In this document: positions 3,787 to 51,044 of the stretch, piece after piece
How positions within the stretch are numbered: position 1 is the first letter of the stretch
Layout of the letters: every line of letters begins with the position of its first letter
NCBI RefSeq assembly: GCF_057098645.1
Contig: NZ_CM169472.1
Length of the DNA: 64,000 nt
Direction: 5' to 3' (one strand)
Program-made: the position numbers and the translations under genes
Notes under the pieces: model-generated
Databases searched by the model: none
Seen by the model: the letters and a program-made list of their open reading frames with translations, nothing else
Told to the model about the DNA's origin: nothing

Positions 3787-4824
3787 TTAATCATCACCCG
3801 CCACGCGGATCACCACTTTGCCGAAGTTTTTACCCTTCAGCAGGCCGATAAACGTCTGTGGCGCATTCTCTAAACCGTCAGTAATTTCTTCGCGGTAGTG
3901 GATTTTATCCTCTTTCACCCATTGCCCCATCTCCTTCTGAAACTCATGGATGCGGTGACCATAATCCTGAGCGATAATAAACCCTTGCAAGCGAATACGT
4001 TTTTTCAGCACCGTTGCCATCAACAGGGGTAAACGATCCGGACCGGGTGGTAGCTCTGTAGCGTTATAGCTGCTCACTAAGCCACAAACGGGAATGCGCG
4101 CAGATGTATTAAGTAATGGTAGCACTGCATCAAATACCTTACCGCCCACGTTTTCATAATAGATATCAATACCTTTTGGGCACGCTTTCGCCAGTTGTTC
4201 GGCAAAATCGTCCGCGTGGTGATCAAGGCAAACATCGAAGCCTAACACCTCGGTAGCATGGCGGCATTTTTCCGCGCCACCGGCTACCCCCACCACTCTG
4301 CAACCTTTAAGTTTGCCGATTTGCCCCACCGTCGCCCCCACTGGTCCTGTCGCCGCAGCTACCACCAACGTTTCGCCCTCTTTAGGCTGACCGATATCCA
4401 GCAGCCCCATATAAGCGGTAAAGCCTGGCATCCCCAGCACACCCAGCGACCACGATGGATTTTGCGGATGATCGCCAAGTTTCACCAGATCATCACCACT
4501 GGATATGTCATAGTCCTGCCATCCACTGTAGCCCAGCACCCAGTCGCCAGGCTGATAATCAGGATGATTCGACTTCACGACACGGCTCACCGTACCGCCG
4601 ACCATCACGCCGCCAATATCAACCGGCGGTGAATAAGATGGCTCATCGCTCATACGTCCACGCATATACGGGTCCAGGGACAAATAAACTGTGCGCAGTA
4701 ACACCTGTCCTTCACCCGGTGTGGCGACATCATCTTCTTCAAGACGGAAATTCTCCGGAACCGGTGCGCCATGTGGACGCGAGGCCAGAACCCAACGTCG
4801 ATTACGCTGCTTTTGTTGCCCCAT
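3787..4824 (-). CDS. curA: NADPH-dependent curcumin/dihydrocurcumin reductase (MDR superfamily)
   Basis: 345 aa from MGQQKQRNRRW; zinc-free medium-chain dehydrogenase Rossmann motif AAATGPVGATVGQ. Confidence 0.9.
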   Translation of the reverse strand: MGQQKQRNRRWVLASRPHGAPVPENFRLEEDDVATPGEGQVLLRTVYLSLDPYMRGRMSDEPSYSPPVDIGGVMVGGTVSRVVKSNHPDYQPGDWVLGYSGWQDYDISSGDDLVKLGDHPQNPSWSLGVLGMPGFTAYMGLLDIGQPKEGETLVVAAATGPVGATVGQIGKLKGCRVVGVAGGAEKCRHATEVLGFDVCLDHHADDFAEQLAKACPKGIDIYYENVGGKVFDAVLPLLNTSARIPVCGLVSSYNATELPPGPDRLPLLMATVLKKRIRLQGFIIAQDYGHRIHEFQKEMGQWVKEDKIHYREEITDGLENAPQTFIGLLKGKNFGKVVIRVAGDD

Positions 4825-5004
4825 AATGCTCTCCTGTGCTTTTGGCATGAATCCATCAATAGTAGCAGGCTCACGGGATTGGTTTTGTTTGCAGCCGTCA
4901 CATCCCCTCTGCAACACGCAATAATTTCATCGAGGAATCCGTTGCTTCGGGCTGTTTTCGATAGTATTGATAACATCATCATCATTATTTTATTGAGGCC
5001 AGAC

Positions 5005-5523
5005 ATGTCCATCCGTTTTGCCCGCAAAGCCGACTGTGCTGCCATTGCGGAAATTTATAACCACGCCGTGTTGTATACGGCGGCTATCTGGAATGACCAA
5101 ACGGTGGATGCAGATAACCGCATTGCCTGGTTTGAAGCGCGGACCATAGCAGGTTATCCGGTGCTGGTAAGTGAAGAAGATGGCGTAGTGACGGGATATG
5201 CCTCGTTTGGCGACTGGCGTAGTTTCGATGGTTTTCGCCATACCGTGGAACATTCGGTTTATGTCCATCCCGATCATCAGGGCAAAGGTCTGGGGCGTAA
5301 ATTGTTAAGCCGATTGATTGATGAAGCGCGGGATTGCGGGAAGCATGTCATGGTCGCCGGGATCGAATCGCAAAATCAGGCCTCGCTGCATCTGCACCAG
5401 TCGCTGGGATTTGTCGTCACCGCACAAATGCCGCAGGTGGGCACTAAATTTGGGCGCTGGCTGGATCTGACATTTATGCAGTTGCAACTCGACGAACGCA
5501 CTGAACCGGACGCGATTGGATGA
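5005..5523 (+). CDS. mnaT: GNAT L-amino acid N-acyltransferase MnaT (YncA)
   Basis: 172 aa from MSIRFARKADCAAIAEIYNH; GNAT fold motifs. Confidence 0.85.
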   Translation: MSIRFARKADCAAIAEIYNHAVLYTAAIWNDQTVDADNRIAWFEARTIAGYPVLVSEEDGVVTGYASFGDWRSFDGFRHTVEHSVYVHPDHQGKGLGRKLLSRLIDEARDCGKHVMVAGIESQNQASLHLHQSLGFVVTAQMPQVGTKFGRWLDLTFMQLQLDERTEPDAIG

Positions 5524-6656: not shown

Positions 6657-6752
6657 ATGAATGTTTCCAGTAGAACTGTAGTACTGATAAATGTCTTTGC
6701 TGCTGTTGGTTTGTTTACTCTTATCTCTATGAGATTTGGCTGGTTTATTTGA
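6657..6752 (+). CDS. yncL: Small membrane protein YncL (31 aa)
   Basis: Not in ORF track (under 60 aa). ATG at 6657 preceded by AAAGGTGG RBS; translates MNVSSRTVVLINVFAAVGLFTLISMRFGWFI*. Confidence 0.75.
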   Translation: MNVSSRTVVLINVFAAVGLFTLISMRFGWFI

Positions 6753-6774: not shown

Positions 6775-6809
6775 CGTACTGTCAGAGAAATCAGTGCTCT
6801 GACAGTACG
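6775..6809. terminator. Bidirectional intrinsic terminator between yncL and patD
   Basis: Perfect 13-bp stem CGTACTGTCAGAG / CTCTGACAGTACG with 9-nt loop. Confidence 0.65.
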
Positions 6810-6848
6810 CAAGATCATCTCATACTCTTACGATCTGCAATATTATCC

Positions 6849-8273
6849 TTAATGTTTAACCATGACGTGGCGGACGACGGTGTAATCCTCCAGCCCATAA
6901 AGTGACATATCCTTGCCGTAACCAGAAAGTTTCTGCCCACCGTGCGGCATTTCACTTACCAGCATGAAATGGGTATTGACCCAGGTACAACCATATTGCA
7001 GCCGTGCGCTGATGCGATGCGCCCTGCCCACATCTTTCGTCCATACCGAAGATGCAAGTCCGTACTGGCTGTCATTCGCCCAGTTTACCACCTGTTCTTC
7101 GTTGTCGAAGAGCGTAACACTCACTACTGGACCAAATACCTCTTTTTGCACGATGGCATCGTCCTGTAATGCGCCAGCCAGCAGCGTCGGCGCATAGTAA
7201 TAGCCATTACCCTTGCGCTTTTCACCGCCAGTGATCACTTTGATGTGCCCTGTCGCTTTCGCCTCTTCTACTGCCTTGCTGACGCGTTCGAGATGCGCCA
7301 GCGAGCTTAAAGGTCCAAGCTCCGTAGACTCGTCATCCGGCGCACCAGATTTTAACGTTGCCACTGCAGCACCGAGTTTTTCCACCAGCGTATCGTAAAT
7401 GCCTTTTTGCGCGTAGATCCGACAAGCCGCAGTACAATCCTGTCCGGCATTGTAATAGCCAAATGTACGTACACCTTCGACCACTGCTTCAATATCCGCA
7501 TCATCAAAAACAATCACTGGCGCTTTGCCACCAAGTTCCATATGAGTACGCTTAATGGACGGCGCAGTATGGCTGATGATGTGTTCCCCAGTGGCGATAG
7601 AGCCCGTCAGCGACACCATCCGCACTTTGGGATGACCGGTCAGCGGATCGCCCACCGTTTTGCCTCTGCCAAACAGCACATTAATCACGCCTGCCGGGAA
7701 GATATCTTTCGCCAGCTCTGCCAACTTCAACGCGGTCAGCGGGGTAATTTCTGATGGTTTAAGCACTACGCAGTTCCCTGCCGCCAGCGCCGGAGCCAGT
7801 TTCCACGCTGCCATCATCAGCGGATAATTCCACGGTGCGATAGAAGCCACGCCCCCCAACGGATCGCGACGGATCATCGAAGTATGACCTTCAAGATATT
7901 CACCTGCCGCCAGACCATTCAGACAGCGCGCCGCACCCGCGAAAAAGCGAAAAACATCGACAATCGCCGGGATTTCATCATTGAACGCACTATGCAGCGG
8001 TTTGCCACAATTACGGGACTCCAGTTCGGCAAAAACCTGACCATTTTCTTCGATAACATCAGCCAGTTTCAGCAGACATTCCGCACGCACTTTCGGCGTG
8101 GTTTGCCCCCATTCGGCAAATGCTGCATCTGCCGCGCGCACAGCAGCATCGACCTGCTCTGCGGATGCCTCGGCAATCTCCAGTAAAACGTCCCCCGTTG
8201 CCGGATTATAGACAGGCTGTTTTTCCCCTTCGCCACTAACCAGTTCTCCGTTAATCAGTAAATTATGTTGCAT
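6849..8273 (-). CDS. patD: Gamma-aminobutyraldehyde dehydrogenase PatD (YdcW)
   Basis: 474-aa aldehyde dehydrogenase with catalytic Cys context (GQDCTAACR) and conserved ELGGK motif. Confidence 0.9.
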
Positions 8274-14787: not shown

Positions 14788-15018
14788 ATGTTTACGAAGG
14801 CGTTATCGGTTGTCTTATTAACGTGTGCGCTGTTCTCAGGACAACTCATGGCAGGGCACAAAGGACATGAATTTGTGTGGGTAAAGAATGTGGATCATCA
14901 GCTGCGTCATGAAGCGGACAGCGATGAATTGCGTGCTGTGGCGGAAGAGTCGGCGGAAGGTTTGCGCGAGCATTTTTACTGGCAAAAATCGCGCAAACCA
15001 GAAGCGGGACAACGTTGA
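14788..15018 (+). CDS. yncJ: Small secreted protein YncJ (DUF2554)
   Basis: 76-aa ORF with signal peptide, RBS AAGGTGG upstream. Confidence 0.75.
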   Translation: MFTKALSVVLLTCALFSGQLMAGHKGHEFVWVKNVDHQLRHEADSDELRAVAEESAEGLREHFYWQKSRKPEAGQR

Positions 15019-15025
15019 GTCGTTT

Positions 15026-15060
15026 GATGCCGGATGCGGCGTAACGCCTTACCCGGCAGG
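15026..15060. repeat. REP (repetitive extragenic palindromic) element
   Basis: TGCCGGATGCGGCGTAACGCCTTACCCGGCAGG matches the E. coli REP consensus GCCGGATGCGGCG…GCCTTATCCGGC; lies between convergent yncJ and rlhA. Confidence 0.65.
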
Positions 15061-15109
15061 CAATATCATGCAGATTCAATAAGTTGTGAGTAACCAGAAA
15101 ACTGGCGTT

Positions 15110-17071
15110 TTACCCTTTTCGCTTCGGCAATGTTTTCAGCAGCTCATCCGGACTTACGGATGCCACTACGCTTCCCGGTAACGGCATTTTCAGTATGTGA
15201 TTTTTGATTTTGCCAATGACGTGCATCTCGCATGGGCGGCAATCAAACTTTAGCGTTAATACTTCATCGCCGTTAACCAGTTGCATTGGCGTAGCCTTCC
15301 AGCTTTTGATATTGCCTTTCGCCTGTTTCGGGCACAGATTAAAGGCAAAGCGCAGACAATGCTTGGTGATCATCACCGGGACTTCGCCCTTCTCTTCATG
15401 TGCCTCATACGCCGCGTCAATCAGCTGCACACCATAGCGATGATAAAATTCACGCGCTTTCTGGTTGTAAACGTTCGCGAGGAAACTCAGATGTGTTTGC
15501 GGATAAACCGGCGCAGGATCAGCAACCGGTTTACGGCTGCCGCGCTGGTAACTGGCAAGACGCGCAGCATCCAGCATGTCGGCAGCTTCACGGCGGAACT
15601 GGTTTAACAGACTGTTTGGTACAAACAGCGCCCCCGGCAAATTAATTTGCACATCGCGGGCGTAATAGATGGTTTGCCCCAGTTTTGCCAGACCATCCTT
15701 CAGATTGTTCATTGCTTTTTCGGCGTTATTGGCTTCGTCGAACTGCCCATCCAGCGTATGCGTTATGCTGACCCCCTCTTCACTGGTGAGAGTCAGAATC
15801 AATTGCTCCTGCCAACCGCCCAGTTCAATGTCTACCGCCACCCGACGTTCGCTGGAGGTTTTTGTCAGTGCCTGCTGCCAGTTATGATCAAGATTACGGT
15901 TTAGTGGGTGATGCGGGCGAATTTTGTGCAAATCTGCTGGCATTTCATTGGGCCAGACGCGGTACTGATTTTCTCCGGTTTTCTCGACCGTATTGGCACG
16001 AAAACCGACGACTTCACGTTTAATCATCACGTTCAGGCCATCACCATTTGCCAGTGGCTCGGTGACGGCAACATCGAGATGATCTTTCGCCACTTTCACT
16101 ACTTCGCCTACCGGCAGGCCGATAAATTTCGGCGAATCGAACGCGCCAATATCGCCTTTACGGGCATTCACAAAATAATCTGTGCTACCACGGTGGAAAG
16201 TCTTTTCCGTCGATGGAACAAAGAAATGTTCAGTACGACCTGATGAAGCGCGCGCCAGATCGCCACGTTCTTCAATAATGGCATCAAGCATCTGGCGATA
16301 ATGGGCGGTGATATTCTTCACGTAGCTCATATCTTTGTAACGCCCCTCAATCTTGAAGGAGCGTACACCAGCATCAATCAGCGCGCCGAGGTTGGCAGTC
16401 TGATCGTTATCTTTCATCGACAGCAGATGTTTTTCATAGGAAACCACCCGCCCCTGATCGTCTTTCAATGTGTATGGCAAACGGCACGCCTGCGAGCAAT
16501 CGCCACGGTTGGCACTACGCCCTGTTTGCGCATGAGAAATGTAGCACTGACCCGAATAGGCCACGCACAGTGCCCCATGAATAAAGAATTCAATGGTCGC
16601 GTCCGTAGCCTGGTGAATCGCGCGGATCTGATCAAGATTCAGCTCTCGCGCCAGCACAATCTGCGTGAAGCCAACATCAGAGAGGAACTTCGCTTTTTCT
16701 ACTGTACGAATGTCGCACTGCGTACTGGCGTGCAGTTCAATCGGCGGAATATCAAGTTCCAGAATCCCCATATCCTGAACAATCAGCGCATCGACACCGG
16801 TCTGGTAGAGGTCAGTAATCAGCCGTTGCGCGGGTTCCAGCTCATCATCATGCAAAATGGTGTTAAGCGTGACGAAAATTTTTGCACCATAACGATGGGC
16901 AAACGGCACCAGCTCGGCAATATCTTTCAGGCTATTACTGGCATTATGACGGGCACCAAAACCTGGGCCGCCGATATAAACAGCATCGGCACCGTGCAAA
17001 ATAGCTTCGCGGGCAATGGCGGCATCGCGTGCCGGGCTTAACAGTTCAAGTCGATGAGAAGATACGGTCAC
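15110..17071 (-). CDS. rlhA: U32-peptidase-family protein RlhA (YdcP), 23S rRNA C2501 hydroxylation factor
   Basis: 653-aa ORF, peptidase U32 family signature region, expected length. Confidence 0.85.
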   Translation of the reverse strand: MTVSSHRLELLSPARDAAIAREAILHGADAVYIGGPGFGARHNASNSLKDIAELVPFAHRYGAKIFVTLNTILHDDELEPAQRLITDLYQTGVDALIVQDMGILELDIPPIELHASTQCDIRTVEKAKFLSDVGFTQIVLARELNLDQIRAIHQATDATIEFFIHGALCVAYSGQCYISHAQTGRSANRGDCSQACRLPYTLKDDQGRVVSYEKHLLSMKDNDQTANLGALIDAGVRSFKIEGRYKDMSYVKNITAHYRQMLDAIIEERGDLARASSGRTEHFFVPSTEKTFHRGSTDYFVNARKGDIGAFDSPKFIGLPVGEVVKVAKDHLDVAVTEPLANGDGLNVMIKREVVGFRANTVEKTGENQYRVWPNEMPADLHKIRPHHPLNRNLDHNWQQALTKTSSERRVAVDIELGGWQEQLILTLTSEEGVSITHTLDGQFDEANNAEKAMNNLKDGLAKLGQTIYYARDVQINLPGALFVPNSLLNQFRREAADMLDAARLASYQRGSRKPVADPAPVYPQTHLSFLANVYNQKAREFYHRYGVQLIDAAYEAHEEKGEVPVMITKHCLRFAFNLCPKQAKGNIKSWKATPMQLVNGDEVLTLKFDCRPCEMHVIGKIKNHILKMPLPGSVVASVSPDELLKTLPKRKG

Positions 17072-29703: not shown

Positions 29704-29899
29704 GACCAAAAACCTCTTTGCGTCACATTTTTACAACAATTATTACAGAAGAGATTAATGCCATTGGAATGAAGAGAGTAACGAATGGCTAAACCGAATG
29801 ACGAAAAATTCTGGAAAACAGCACGCAATTTCGTGAAGTGATTATTTTCGTCCCTAAGGAAACCTCATAGGATGCCTGCGGATGCCTGAGACTTTCTGT

Positions 29900-29967
29900 T
29901 TTCAGGCTAACCGGGAATCAGAAAGACGAAGGCCCCGACCGATATTTCTATCAACCGAGGCCAACGA

Positions 29968-29990
<23 letters not shown>
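29900..29990 (-). ncRNA. sokB: Expected position of SokB antisense RNA of the hokB/mokB/sokB type I TA locus (approximate)
   Basis: Inferred only from hok/sok locus architecture (antisense over the mok translation-initiation region); boundaries not determined from sequence. Confidence 0.25.
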
Positions 29991-30175
<185 letters not shown>

Positions 30176-30590: not shown

Positions 30591-30654
30591 CTTCCGATGT
30601 AGACCCGTACTCTTCGCCTGTACCACGGGTCGGTTTTAGTACAGGCGTTTTCTT
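30591..30654 (+). ncRNA. rydC: RydC small regulatory RNA (Hfq-dependent, pseudoknot)
   Basis: CTTCCGATGTAGACCCGT…GGTCGGTTTTAGTACAGGCGTTTTCTT matches the RydC sequence as I recall it; TATAAT -10 element at 30580-30585; location beside cybB as in K-12. Confidence 0.7.
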
Positions 30655-32385: not shown

Positions 32386-32393
32386 CGCGCACA

Positions 32394-32415
32394 GGCGGAG
32401 GAAAAAACCTCCGCC
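32394..32415. terminator. Bidirectional terminator between gapC and aldA
   Basis: GGCGGAGG-AAAAAA-CCTCCGCC hairpin followed by T-tract. Confidence 0.65.
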
Positions 32416-32426
32416 TCTTTCACTCA

Positions 32427-39857: not shown

Positions 39858-39887
39858 GATGTGGACTGTAGATATTCAGTCCACATC
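39858..39887. terminator. Bidirectional terminator between azoR and ynbD
   Basis: Perfect 11-bp stem GATGTGGACTG / CAGTCCACATC with 8-nt loop. Confidence 0.65.
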
Positions 39888-39896
39888 TCAATCCAC

Positions 39897-41732
<1,836 letters not shown>

Positions 41733-41736
<4 letters not shown>

Positions 41737-42059
41737 TTTTTCCAGAGGCGGTCGAACTCCGCCTTCGCAAAATAAGCGGAAGCCTGGCGAAGGATATCGT
41801 TACTGCGGCGCAGTTCACGATTTTCACGCTCCAGCTCTTTCAGACGCTGACGTTCAGCGGTGGTGAGCCCTCCATCACCGCCCCCGGTATCCCGCTCATG
41901 CTGGCGAACCCAGACACGCAGAGTCTCCGGCGTACAGCCAATCTTTGGAGCAATGGAACAAATTGTCGCCCATTGTGAGTCATATTCGCCCTGACTTTCC
42001 AGAACCATACGGACTGCCCGTTGACGGACTTCAGGGGAAAAACGAGTATTTTTAGTCAT
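41733..42059 (-). CDS. IS629 transposase OrfA (HTH DNA-binding)
   Basis: 108 aa [19 protein letters not shown]…; A-run GAAAAAATG at the orfA/orfB overlap is a likely -1 frameshift site. Confidence 0.9.
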
Positions 42060-42067
42060 CCTGTTTA

Positions 42068-44273
<2,206 letters not shown>

Positions 44274-48266: not shown

Positions 48267-48329
48267 ATGCACTCCATGCCATTAAAAAAGAAACAAAAGG
48301 GAAATGCATCTTTCCCTTTTGTATATTCG

Positions 48330-49190
48330 TTATTCTCGCGAAATACCATCCAACGTAGACAACACTTCCTCAGAAAGATGCAATTTTTCAGCAGCCATAT
48401 TCTCCCGTAAATGCGCTACAGAAGACGTCCCTGGGATCAGCAAAATATTCGGTGAACGTTGTAACAGCCACGCCAGCGCCACCTGCATTGGTGTTGCACC
48501 CAGGCTCGCAGCAACATCGGAAAGCGTGGAAGATTGCAGCGGCGTAAAGCCCCCGAGCGGGAAGAACGGCACATAGGCAATGCCTTCGCGGGCCAAAGCA
48601 TCAATCATTGCGTCATCAGCACGATGAGCAATGTTGTATTCGTTTTGCACACAGACGATTTCGGTAATCTTACGCGCCTCTGCAACCTGCGTCGGTGTGA
48701 CGTTGCTCAGGCCAATATGTTTTACCAGGCCTTGTTGTTGCATCTCTGCCAGCACGGTCAGGCTGGCTTCAATCGATCCTTCCGCCGGGCCATGACCATC
48801 CCCCATCATCACGCGCAGGTTAACCACATCCAGTACGTCCAGGCCGAGATTACGTAGATTATCGTGTACCGCTTTTTGCAGCTCTGCCGGAGAAAAGGCG
48901 GGCAACCAGGAAGCGTCTTCTCCACGCCGCGCACCAATTTTAGTGACAATTGTCAGGTCGTCAGAGTAAGGATAAAGCGCTTCGCGGATAATCTGATTGG
49001 TGACGTGCGGACCATAAAAATCGCTGGTATCAATATGATTGACGCCCAATGCCAGCGCCTCGCGCAGCACGGTAATAGCGACATGGCGATCTCTGGGGGG
49101 GCCGAAAACCCCAGGACCTGCCAGTTGCATCGCGCCATAACCAAGACGGTTAACGGATTTTGTACCGAGAGTAAATGTATTGCTGCTCAT
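48330..49190 (-). CDS. ydbC: Aldo-keto reductase YdbC
   Basis: 286 aa from MSSNTFTLG; AKR fold. Confidence 0.85.
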   Translation of the reverse strand: MSSNTFTLGTKSVNRLGYGAMQLAGPGVFGPPRDRHVAITVLREALALGVNHIDTSDFYGPHVTNQIIREALYPYSDDLTIVTKIGARRGEDASWLPAFSPAELQKAVHDNLRNLGLDVLDVVNLRVMMGDGHGPAEGSIEASLTVLAEMQQQGLVKHIGLSNVTPTQVAEARKITEIVCVQNEYNIAHRADDAMIDALAREGIAYVPFFPLGGFTPLQSSTLSDVAASLGATPMQVALAWLLQRSPNILLIPGTSSVAHLRENMAAEKLHLSEEVLSTLDGISRE

Positions 49191-49421
49191 CGATACAGGT
49201 TGCGGTTTTTTTATTGCCAGATGCGGCGCTTGACGCGTTTTGTTTTGGTGTCTTTCAGGATAACAGAGCAACCCATCCAGTAATCTTGTTTACGCCCTCG
49301 CATTATTTATCTCTATTCATTTCTATACTGATTTTTCTTAATCCGTTTTATTACAGGGCAGGGTGCAGCGTTGCGGTTTAGGTATCACCTGCTAAAAATT
49401 AGAACGTTCAGCATCAGGACG

Positions 49422-50012
49422 TTACTGTTTCGGTCGCAGATTCTCATCAAATACCAGGCGCTGCCGGCCAGGTTCAACTTCCCGCAATGGCTCGACTTGA
49501 TGCAACGTCTGCTTACAGCGTGTCACCAGCACCTGATACTCATGCGTGCCCTGCTTTTTCCATGCCAGTTCCTGCTCACTAAGTTCACGAATCGCTTTGG
49601 CCGGGCTGCCGACAATCAGGTAATTAGCAGGCATTTCTGCTTTGGCTTTCACAAATGCGGATGCGCTAACAATGCTGTTCTCGCCAATCACCGCACCGTC
49701 CATCACTACCGCGTTCATTCCCACTAATGCATTGCGGCGGATAATGCAGCCGTGAAGGATAGCGCTATGACCAATATGTCCATCTTCTTCCACGACAGTA
49801 TCCTGCTCGGGAAAACCGTGCATAACGCAATTATCCTGAATGTTCGCACCATCTTTCACCACGATACGACCAAAATCGCCACGCAAGCTGGCATTTGGCC
49901 CAACGTAAACGCCCTTGCCGAGAATAACATCGCCGATCAATACCGCTGTCGGATGGACAAAGCTCTCTTCTGGCACAACCGGAGTCAGACCATCTATCTG
50001 GTAAATTGGCAT
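49422..50012 (-). CDS. paaY: PaaY, hexapeptide-repeat thioesterase / regulatory protein of phenylacetate catabolism
   Basis: 196-aa gamma-carbonic-anhydrase-like hexapeptide ORF; overlaps paaX 3' end. Confidence 0.85.
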
Positions 50013-50944
50013 AACGCCTCCTGTTCAATATTTAAGCCGCCAAAACGTTGAAAATACAGGCTTCCCGGCGCAGGCAGTTCACCGACCGAGGTTTCACCTT
50101 TTTCACTAACGAACGCTAAAGCAGCAGGCGCTACGCGCTGATAAATGTTGATACACAGCTGACGTGCCGTATGCCCTGCCCAGTGTGCCGGAAGCAACTC
50201 CTCCGGCAACAATGGGTCTTTAAGGACGACACGGCGATAAAAATGGATCAGTAAAAGCTGAATATGAAATGCACGCTCCGGGGTTAACTCGTCTGCCGTC
50301 TCTTTTAACAGCGGCACCAGCGGGCGGAATGACTGAATAAAGGTTTCGTACATGGCATTTTGTTCAGTTAAATGCCAGCACTCTTCCACTCTGGCACGCA
50401 GTGCTGCACGAGAAAGCGCCAGTGGTATTTGCGCTTCAAAACAAATCACGTTATCCGCCACACCCGCTTCATGCAAAAGTGTCTGTACATCCGCCAGTTT
50501 TTGCGACGGCGATGCCATCAGGCTGGGCGCCAGTGCACCAAAACCTTGCCAGATCAACTGCTTTTTGACATCAGCCAGCGTCGCTTTATCTAAACCTTCC
50601 GAGAGCAACAGGAGCCATTTACCATCCCATGCAGGTTGCTCTGCGCGATAAATTTTACTTTCTGCCCGTCGCGTCAGGCGCAAGCCTTTATCACTGAGGC
50701 TATAGAAACTGCGTCGCCCGATGCGGGAAACATCCAGCCAGCCTTCTTTATTAAGACGAAACAAAGCGGTGCGCACGAAACGCTCACCAAATCCCAGCCC
50801 TTCCAGCAAAGCAGCCAGACTACCCAGCCAGATTTCACCACCACGATGGGAAAGCGAATCACCATACAGAGAGGAGATCAAAGATGTGCCACTGACCGGA
50901 ACAGCGTTTACAGCATGTTGGATAAAAGTATCAAGTTTACTCAT
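49994..50944 (-). CDS. paaX: PaaX, phenylacetyl-CoA-responsive repressor of the paa operon
   Basis: 316-aa ORF of expected length. Confidence 0.85.
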
Positions 50945-51003
50945 TCGATTCAGTCTGTTGTTATTGTTGTGATTTATGAATCATAGCACAGGTCGTATCG
51001 ACT

Positions 51004-51037
51004 TCTGGCCCTGGCGCTTTACCCCACCAGGGCCAGA
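51004..51037. terminator. Terminator hairpin downstream of the paaK remnant
   Basis: 11-bp stem TCTGGCCCTGG / CCAGGGCCAGA with 12-nt loop. Confidence 0.5.
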
Positions 51038-51044
51038 CGACACA

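Follow-up and report, generated by a model that had tools for sequence, protein, structure and literature searches.

Four perfect hairpins between convergent genes in a 64,000-nt stretch of Escherichia coli DNA (referred to below as the window) are best explained as 3'-terminal stem-loops of mRNAs, which mark and protect the transcript ends while termination itself is carried out by Rho. We give this reading a probability of about 0.65. An earlier note on the same DNA had described the hairpins as bidirectional terminators, each shared by both genes of a convergent pair and probably insulating the neighbouring transcription units.

The window is a segment of an E. coli O145:H28-type chromosome extending from yncE to ydbH. 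It is nearly identical to a segment of E. coli O145 strain RM9872 (NZ_CP028379.1, positions 1899784-1963783), from which it differs by (i) 17 substitutions and two 1-nt indels, (ii) an extra 1.3-kb IS3-family insertion in ynbD, and (iii) the inversion of a 175-bp segment. All four hairpins are untouched by these differences. Three of them (6775, 39858 and 32393) are identical in E. coli K-12 MG1655, and the feaR/ydbL hairpin departs from its K-12 counterpart at a single compensated pair and a single base of the loop. Owing to this sequence identity, published K-12 transcript maps can be transferred to the window by coordinate; the transcript data used below all come from K-12 and none from an O145 strain, and the feaR/ydbL hairpin is the one site that is not identical.

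The window was scanned exhaustively for perfect stem-loops (stem of at least 9 bp, loop of 3-12 nt), which gave 14 matches. The 13-bp and 11-bp stems at 6775 and 39858 were found exactly as the earlier note had claimed. Its other two hairpins, given as a 16-bp stem at 63149-63187 and an 8-bp stem at 32394-32415, are also present, each being one base pair longer than described (Table 1), and two perfect hairpins, at 60465-60491 and 48293-48322, had been omitted from it. RefSeq annotation of the near-identical genome and the ORF lists place all four hairpins between convergent gene pairs, as had been stated. The patD stop codon is followed by the 6775 hairpin at a distance of 40 nt, and the first three bases of the 63148 stem are the feaR stop codon, with 134 nt separating this palindrome from the ydbL stop.

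Table 1. Features of the window and of the corresponding K-12 loci; Rho regions are given in K-12 coordinates with their strand, all other features in window coordinates.
Feature	Coordinates	Strand	Left arm / loop / right arm	Stem and loop	Genes	Remarks
Hairpin	6775-6809		CGTACTGTCAGAG / AAATCAGTG / CTCTGACAGTACG	13 bp, loop 9 nt	yncL+/patD-	
Hairpin	39858-39887		GATGTGGACTG / TAGATATT / CAGTCCACATC	11 bp, loop 8 nt	azoR+/ynbD-	
Hairpin	63148-63188		TAACTAATTCGCGTTGC / ATGTACA / GCAACGCGAATTAGTTA	17-bp palindrome, loop 7 nt	feaR+/ydbL-	
Hairpin	32393-32416		GGCGGAGG / AAAAAA / CCTCCGCC	9 bp (8 G/C-rich pairs and one A-T), loop 6 nt	gap (gapC)+/aldA-	
Hairpin	60465-60491		AAAAAACGGCAC / CAG / GTGCCGTTTTTT	12 bp, A6...T6	tynA+/feaB-	Canonical two-way intrinsic terminator; positive control for the U-tract
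Hairpin (perfect)	48293-48322				pdxI-/ydbD-	Same-strand genes
yncL	6657..6752	+				31-aa stress-response membrane protein; annotation and ORF
patD	6849..8273	-				Convergent neighbour of yncL
Candidate Rho-loading region	6813..6912	+				25 C and 17 G in the 100 nt from 6810 onwards; antisense to the 3' end of patD
Rho region, yncL	1516753	-				Score 16.6; downstream/upstream coverage 4%, rising to 68% with BCM
Rho region, azoR	1482190	-				Score 4.9; downstream/upstream coverage 35%, rising to 172% with BCM
Rho region, gapC	1489650	-				Score 6.6; downstream/upstream coverage 9%, rising to 61% with BCM
Rho region, aldA	1490128	+				Score 5.6; downstream/upstream coverage 17%, rising to 97% with BCM
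Rho region, ydbL	1446501	+				Score 4.0; downstream/upstream coverage 26%, rising to 105% with BCM

The folding free energies, a check proposed in the earlier note, confirm that the hairpins are stable (-16 to -25.5 kcal/mol, on either strand), and together with their flanks they reach z-scores of -2.5 to -5.7 relative to shuffled sequences. Perfect stems of at least 11 bp are enriched approximately 80-fold in the window (6 observed vs. 0.075 expected per shuffle, from 40 dinucleotide shuffles of the window), and stems of at least 12 bp did not occur in any of the 40 shuffles. Four of the six stems of at least 11 bp are located in convergent spacers, which by our estimate constitute roughly 1% of the window. 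Every stem pair in the window copies is of the Watson-Crick type, with zero G-U pairs. Such a palindrome can fold in the RNA whichever strand is transcribed, and one structure can therefore serve both convergent genes.

The four sites are not peculiar in this respect, as the region generally has a single hairpin for each convergent pair: folding revealed one shared hairpin in each of the remaining convergent spacers pqqU/mcbR, ydcO/ydcL and ydcI/trg. The convergent spacer yncJ/rlhA (window 15015-15115) contains a REP-like palindrome (GCCGGATGCGGCGTAACGCCTTACCCGGC), recognized by eye, and a second hairpin. Four pairs of the region, rlhA-yncJ, trg-ydcI, rimL-ydcK and patD-yncL, are listed as convergent overlapping transcript pairs according to ExcludonFinder (PMC12288877).

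REP/BIME elements, which are 3'-UTR stabilizers and partial Rho-dependent terminators (bioRxiv 10.64898/2026.03.23.713779), resemble the hairpins analyzed here in being palindromes without a U-tract that are found in 3' UTRs, often between convergent genes, and in their dual role of termination site and barrier to decay. REPs, however, form a multi-copy family with a consensus, whereas the spacers of yncL, azoR and feaR occur at a median of one place per genome, and their hairpins are single-copy and of unrelated sequence (the palindromic feaR/ydbL query gives two places per record because both strands match). Membership in REP/BIME or another repeat family was therefore rejected for these three hairpins. 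In Rfam, no family reached the gathering threshold at any of these hairpins, and a permissive threshold produced only sub-threshold generic miRNA-precursor matches.

RNA 3' ends mapped in K-12 fall 3 to 8 nt after the stems for yncL, azoR, gapC and aldA. The yncL end at 1517039(-), equivalent to window position 6812(+) and thus 3 nt past the stem, was recorded under three growth conditions (Adams et al., 2021, eLife, PMC7815308, supplementary file 1), with 75,265 reads in LB at OD 0.4 and 536,300 reads in LB at OD 2.0, in the context ...CTCTGACAGTACGCAA. It is the end of the yncL mRNA, despite the label "antisense patD" assigned by the pipeline of that study. Independently, in the TRS study (Nat Commun 2023, PMC10687069), the primary 3' termini are 1517034(-) for yncL (range 1517026-1517042), 1482204(-) for azoR (about window position 39894(+), ~7 nt past the stem) and 1489676(-) for gapC, and the same hairpins are printed for all three genes. 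The gapC end at 1489677(-), window position 32421(+), has the terminal sequence ...CCUCUUUC; the primary aldA end, found under three conditions, is at 1489709(+), window position 32389(-), 4 nt past the stem. These two ends thus lie on opposite strands of one hairpin, 32 nt apart.

Ends on both strands are documented for gap/aldA only, yncL/patD and azoR/ynbD having ends on one strand each. The two datasets searched contain no 3' ends of patD, ynbD, ydbL, feaR, feaB or tynA, which would fit low expression of these genes in the media used. An 11-bp perfect hairpin elsewhere in the window (51004-51037, TCTGGCCCTGG...CCAGGGCCAGA, loop of 12 nt) coincides with two K-12 Term-seq ends on the minus strand, 1463435 and 1463441, which are antisense to the paaK terminus, and may be another 3'-end hairpin of the U-less kind.

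On neither strand are the hairpins at 6775, 39858 and 63148 followed by a U-tract, and at most three U residues occur in the 8 nt adjoining the stem. Their tail T-scores (d'Aubenton-Carafa-type) range from 0.04 to 1.25 over both strands, compared with values of 4.5 and 4.9 for the tynA/feaB terminator and 4.5 for ydcL. The 32393 hairpin scores 2.3 on the gapC side (+), where a partial tail (CUUUC) is present, and 1.4 on the aldA side (-), where there is no tail. Lacking a U-tract, the three long hairpins cannot release RNA polymerase alone.

What does so at these loci is indicated by the data of Adams et al. (2021), who defined 1,078 Rho termination regions genome-wide from RNA coverage with and without bicyclomycin (BCM), an inhibitor of Rho. 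A Rho region is situated just downstream of the hairpin in five of the eight hairpin directions (PMC7815308, supplementary file 2; Table 1), so that each of the four hairpins has one in at least one direction, with scores of 4.0-16.6; the other three directions have no entry in that file. By our own Poisson estimate, approximately 0.4 Rho regions would be expected by chance within 450 nt of the eight directions. Because the scores were calculated in 800-nt windows, they show dependence of the locus on Rho rather than the exact site of release, and BCM may act indirectly. Near-complete readthrough would not be brought back by inhibition of Rho if the hairpins released polymerase on their own. 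The sequence downstream of the hairpin has a C/G ratio of 1.47 for yncL, 1.67 for azoR, 1.88 for gapC and 1.18 for ydbL, and of 0.75 (G-rich) for aldA, values that describe composition only.

In the proposed mechanism, the hairpin would be transcribed at the end of the gene and fold in the RNA. Rho would load on C-rich untranslated RNA just downstream, which is antisense to the facing gene, and terminate transcription there; the transcript would then be trimmed back to the hairpin, and the folded structure, by blocking 3'-to-5' exonucleases, would leave a sharp and stable 3' end a few nucleotides downstream of the stem. The hairpin may also pause the polymerase. At 32393 the same mode would operate in both directions, and the CUUUC tail on the gapC side would add a weak intrinsic component. 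A similar function may be expected at feaR/ydbL, as well as in the patD, ynbD and feaR directions.

A class of transcript ends with these properties has been described. According to Dar and Sorek (Nucleic Acids Res 2018, PMC6061677), the steady-state ends of Rho-dependent transcripts fall precisely just after stable stem-loops without a U-tail; these structures shield the RNA from PNPase and RNase II, and rut sites lie directly behind them. Adams et al. argue along similar general lines for processed ends (PMC7815308). The hairpins of the window share with this class the stable stem-loop, the absence of a U-rich tail, the precise end (at the distances given above for yncL, aldA and azoR) and readthrough that increases when Rho is inhibited (in the five directions named above). 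As to a rut-like downstream sequence, C exceeds G in four of these five directions and G exceeds C in the aldA direction. They differ from the class as described there in their unusually long perfect stems (11-17 bp) and in having a complementary strand that can be used by a convergent gene.

Among the alternatives, the one that fares best, although we regard it as unlikely, attributes the ends to collisions. Overlapping two-way terminators of this kind are hairpins that pause polymerases arriving from both sides, and head-on or trailing collisions then cause release that requires neither Rho nor a U-tract (Ju et al., Nat Microbiol 2019; Wang et al., 2022, bioRxiv 10.1101/2022.10.23.513370). 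As characterized by Wang et al., the sites of Ju et al. are Rho-independent hairpins between convergent genes, and several features named there, i.e., the convergent setting, palindromes folding on both strands and a lack of resemblance to intrinsic terminators, are found in the window as well. The gap/aldA ends, which overlap on both strands, and the listing of patD-yncL as a convergent overlapping transcript pair are also in keeping with collisions. Yet independence from Rho belongs to the definition of the class as relayed by Wang et al., whereas the loci analyzed here show BCM-sensitive readthrough. Moreover, three of the four loci have no second-strand 3' end in the maps, and the dense two-sided traffic needed for collisions contrasts with the lack of detectable 3' ends for patD, ynbD and feaR. 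The yncL hairpin, in addition, persists at a distance of 400 nt from the nearest convergent gene in many E. coli genomes (see below).

Self-sufficient two-way intrinsic termination, in which the hairpin alone would release polymerase in both directions, was implied by the earlier note and is now quite improbable. The high stability of the G/C-rich stem-loops, the 3' ends located right after them and the partial U-rich tail on the gapC side are what such terminators would show; however, the 3' U-rich tract is lacking in the three long hairpins, and BCM raises readthrough to 61-172%, where insensitivity to inhibition of Rho would be expected, so that this reading is largely refuted. The consensus terminator scan did not call the 6775 hairpin, whose 9-nt loop exceeds the allowed 3-8 nt. 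The true two-way intrinsic terminator of the window (60465-60491) looks quite different: it is likewise one palindromic hairpin shared by convergent genes (tynA/feaB), but has a short G/C core between an A-tract and a T-tract, which gives a U-tail in both directions, and the three long hairpins have neither.

The proposals of the earlier note thus have to be divided. RNA 3' ends, which it had suggested as a check, do map to three of the four hairpins (yncL, azoR and gapC/aldA), and the structures do separate neighbouring units as transcript-end elements acting together with Rho; as two-way terminators, however, they are not autonomous, and only one of the four is seen to be used on both strands. 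The idea that one hairpin is common to both genes is borne out at gap/aldA, where both strands have ends; at 6775 the hairpin is primarily that of yncL.

The assignment to yncL is based on comparison of genomes. The stems of the 6775 hairpin are invariant within E. coli, apart from the divergent lineage described below, and the last three loop bases vary (GTG or ACT). Identity of the yncL-patD spacer drops to 80-95% in about 1,170 of 5,411 genomes. In the one strain of this kind examined at scale (L010), the divergence is explained by a catB-like acetyltransferase gene between yncL and patD, and two other sampled strains have the same diverged downstream sequence. The hairpin is still found 22 nt after the yncL stop codon in the strain with the catB-like gene, in which patD has a terminator-like hairpin of its own (AGTGGCTG...CGGCCACT, then ATCGTTTTAGG), resembling the patD terminators of other genera. 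The yncL hairpin persists unchanged in the approximately 1,170 genomes with a diverged spacer, the nearest convergent gene being 400 nt away as judged from the one strain in which gene order was examined. As the hairpin stays with yncL apart from patD, it is to be regarded as the yncL 3' hairpin, and its sharing with patD in the window strain comes from the adjacency of the two genes.

A scan of 100,044 species genomes seeded with PatD yielded 80 loci, among which yncL adjoins patD in E. coli only; the two genes are ~1.1 kb apart in Superficieibacter. In other genera patD has its own terminator hairpins, unrelated to that at 6775. Downstream of a yncL homologue in Superficieibacter electus lies a perfect 10-bp G/C hairpin of unrelated sequence, whose tail is rich in C and poor in U. 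In a divergent E. coli lineage (L011), the stem is kept by a double change from T-A to C-G, while the loop and the downstream flank are completely different. The Superficieibacter and L011 findings both favour the assignment to yncL; the covariation evidence for the 6775 hairpin comes from within E. coli. A lower helix of 10 bp, predicted to extend the yncL hairpin, was dropped, as only about 7 of its 10 pairs are kept in the divergent lineage (alignment by eye).

The inserted DNA of strain L010 (positions 4060-5440, equivalent to window 6810-6850) is a 1.3-kb cassette encoding the CatB-related acetyltransferase and flanked by imperfect direct repeats of ~20 nt, AACATTATCCTTAATATTTAC and AACATCTAACTTAATGTTTAAC. 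The K-12-type and O157 TR01-type spacers look like different products of crossover between these repeats.

Seven of the sampled E. coli sequences retain the azoR/ynbD hairpin; among them the stems are invariant, the loop contains a 3-nt indel and the flanks are variable. At feaR/ydbL the stem itself varies at pair 10, with C-G in the window copy, G-C in that of K-12 and A-T in that of strain 201609, and the change is compensated each time. A 57-nt query covering this hairpin was surveyed in 4,196 genomes, whose matches fall into classes of 100%, 96.5%, 94.7%, 93.0% and 91.2% identity. The window-identical C-G allele is present in 880 genomes; 552 genomes in the 95-99% band correspond to the A-T allele with two mismatches, and 2,753 genomes in the 90-95% band correspond to the G-C forms. 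No uncompensated single-mismatch class was seen among sixty evenly spaced entries of the 4,196 genomes. At the apex, a common change from C-G to U-G leaves the pair intact in the feaR-sense RNA only. The compensated pair, a small and tidy case of covariation within one species, supports selection for pairing. Template switching can make compensated changes in a palindrome in one step, and the three alleles could therefore also reflect such correction of the DNA palindrome.

A G-U pair in one transcript corresponds to an A-C mismatch in the other, so wobble-free stems are expected only where both transcripts need the structure. The long Watson-Crick hairpins might on this basis form a selected dual-strand sub-class, the three feaR/ydbL alleles reflecting either selection on both strands or homogenization by template switching; we consider this idea doubtful.

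The remaining explanation, to which we give the smallest chance of those considered, is that the palindromes function or arise at the DNA level with no role in RNA, as protein-binding or cruciform sites or as by-products of template-switch (quasipalindrome) correction: the Watson-Crick-only stems of the window copies, the three compensated feaR/ydbL alleles with no sampled intermediates and the lack of a mapped RNA end at this locus would agree with it, but three of the four hairpins have RNA 3' ends at the stem base, selection for folding in both transcripts also yields Watson-Crick-only pairing, and the common apex variant pairs only in the feaR-sense RNA. A purely DNA-level role is unlikely at the three sites with mapped ends and would be more conceivable at feaR/ydbL. 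A protein operator at the feaR palindrome was specifically rejected, since one position tolerates three different base pairs, which argues against sequence-specific recognition by a protein.

Elements of the kind favoured here, i.e., 3'-terminal stem-loops coupled to Rho-dependent termination, have been described before, as have three of the four individual 3' ends. The set of hairpins has little importance of its own and is a clean local illustration of how convergent units of E. coli end: some spacers of the region contain true two-way intrinsic terminators, others U-less Rho-dependent stem-loops. In genome scans, a hairpin found between convergent genes should be named a terminator only if it has a U-tract or has been shown to act independently of Rho.

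Several other features of the window were recorded. The IS3-family element in ynbD (40800-42117), absent from RM9872, has 29-nt terminal inverted repeats and contains an ALIL frameshift pseudoknot (41662-41778); because of this insertion, the window strain has a disrupted copy of ynbD opposite the azoR hairpin. The 175-bp segment at 49192-49366, part of the pdxI-paaY spacer, is inverted with respect to RM9872. Among 5,201 matching complete E. coli genomes, not one spans at least 80% of positions 49060-49500 in one place and on one strand, and among the matches listed the flanks and the inner segment fall in separate places. No inverted repeats of at least 10 nt were found flanking the inversion, which could be a real strain-specific event, an artefact of assembly or an edit.

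In the window lineage, the phenylethylamine/phenylacetate pathway is undergoing decay: (i) tynA carries a G-to-A nonsense change at 60184, (ii) feaR has an internal stop that leaves only a 219-aa ORF (62491-63150), and (iii) paaG to paaK are missing in comparison with K-12 (window 50000-53000). Conversely, three genes present as pseudogenes in RM9872, paaC, feaB and ydcY, appear to be intact in the window owing to single-base differences at 53824, 61559 and 5972, respectively. Rfam matches in the window include the sok antitoxin RNA of the hokB locus (29880-30031) and the small RNA RydC (30591-30654), both expected for a K-12-like region.
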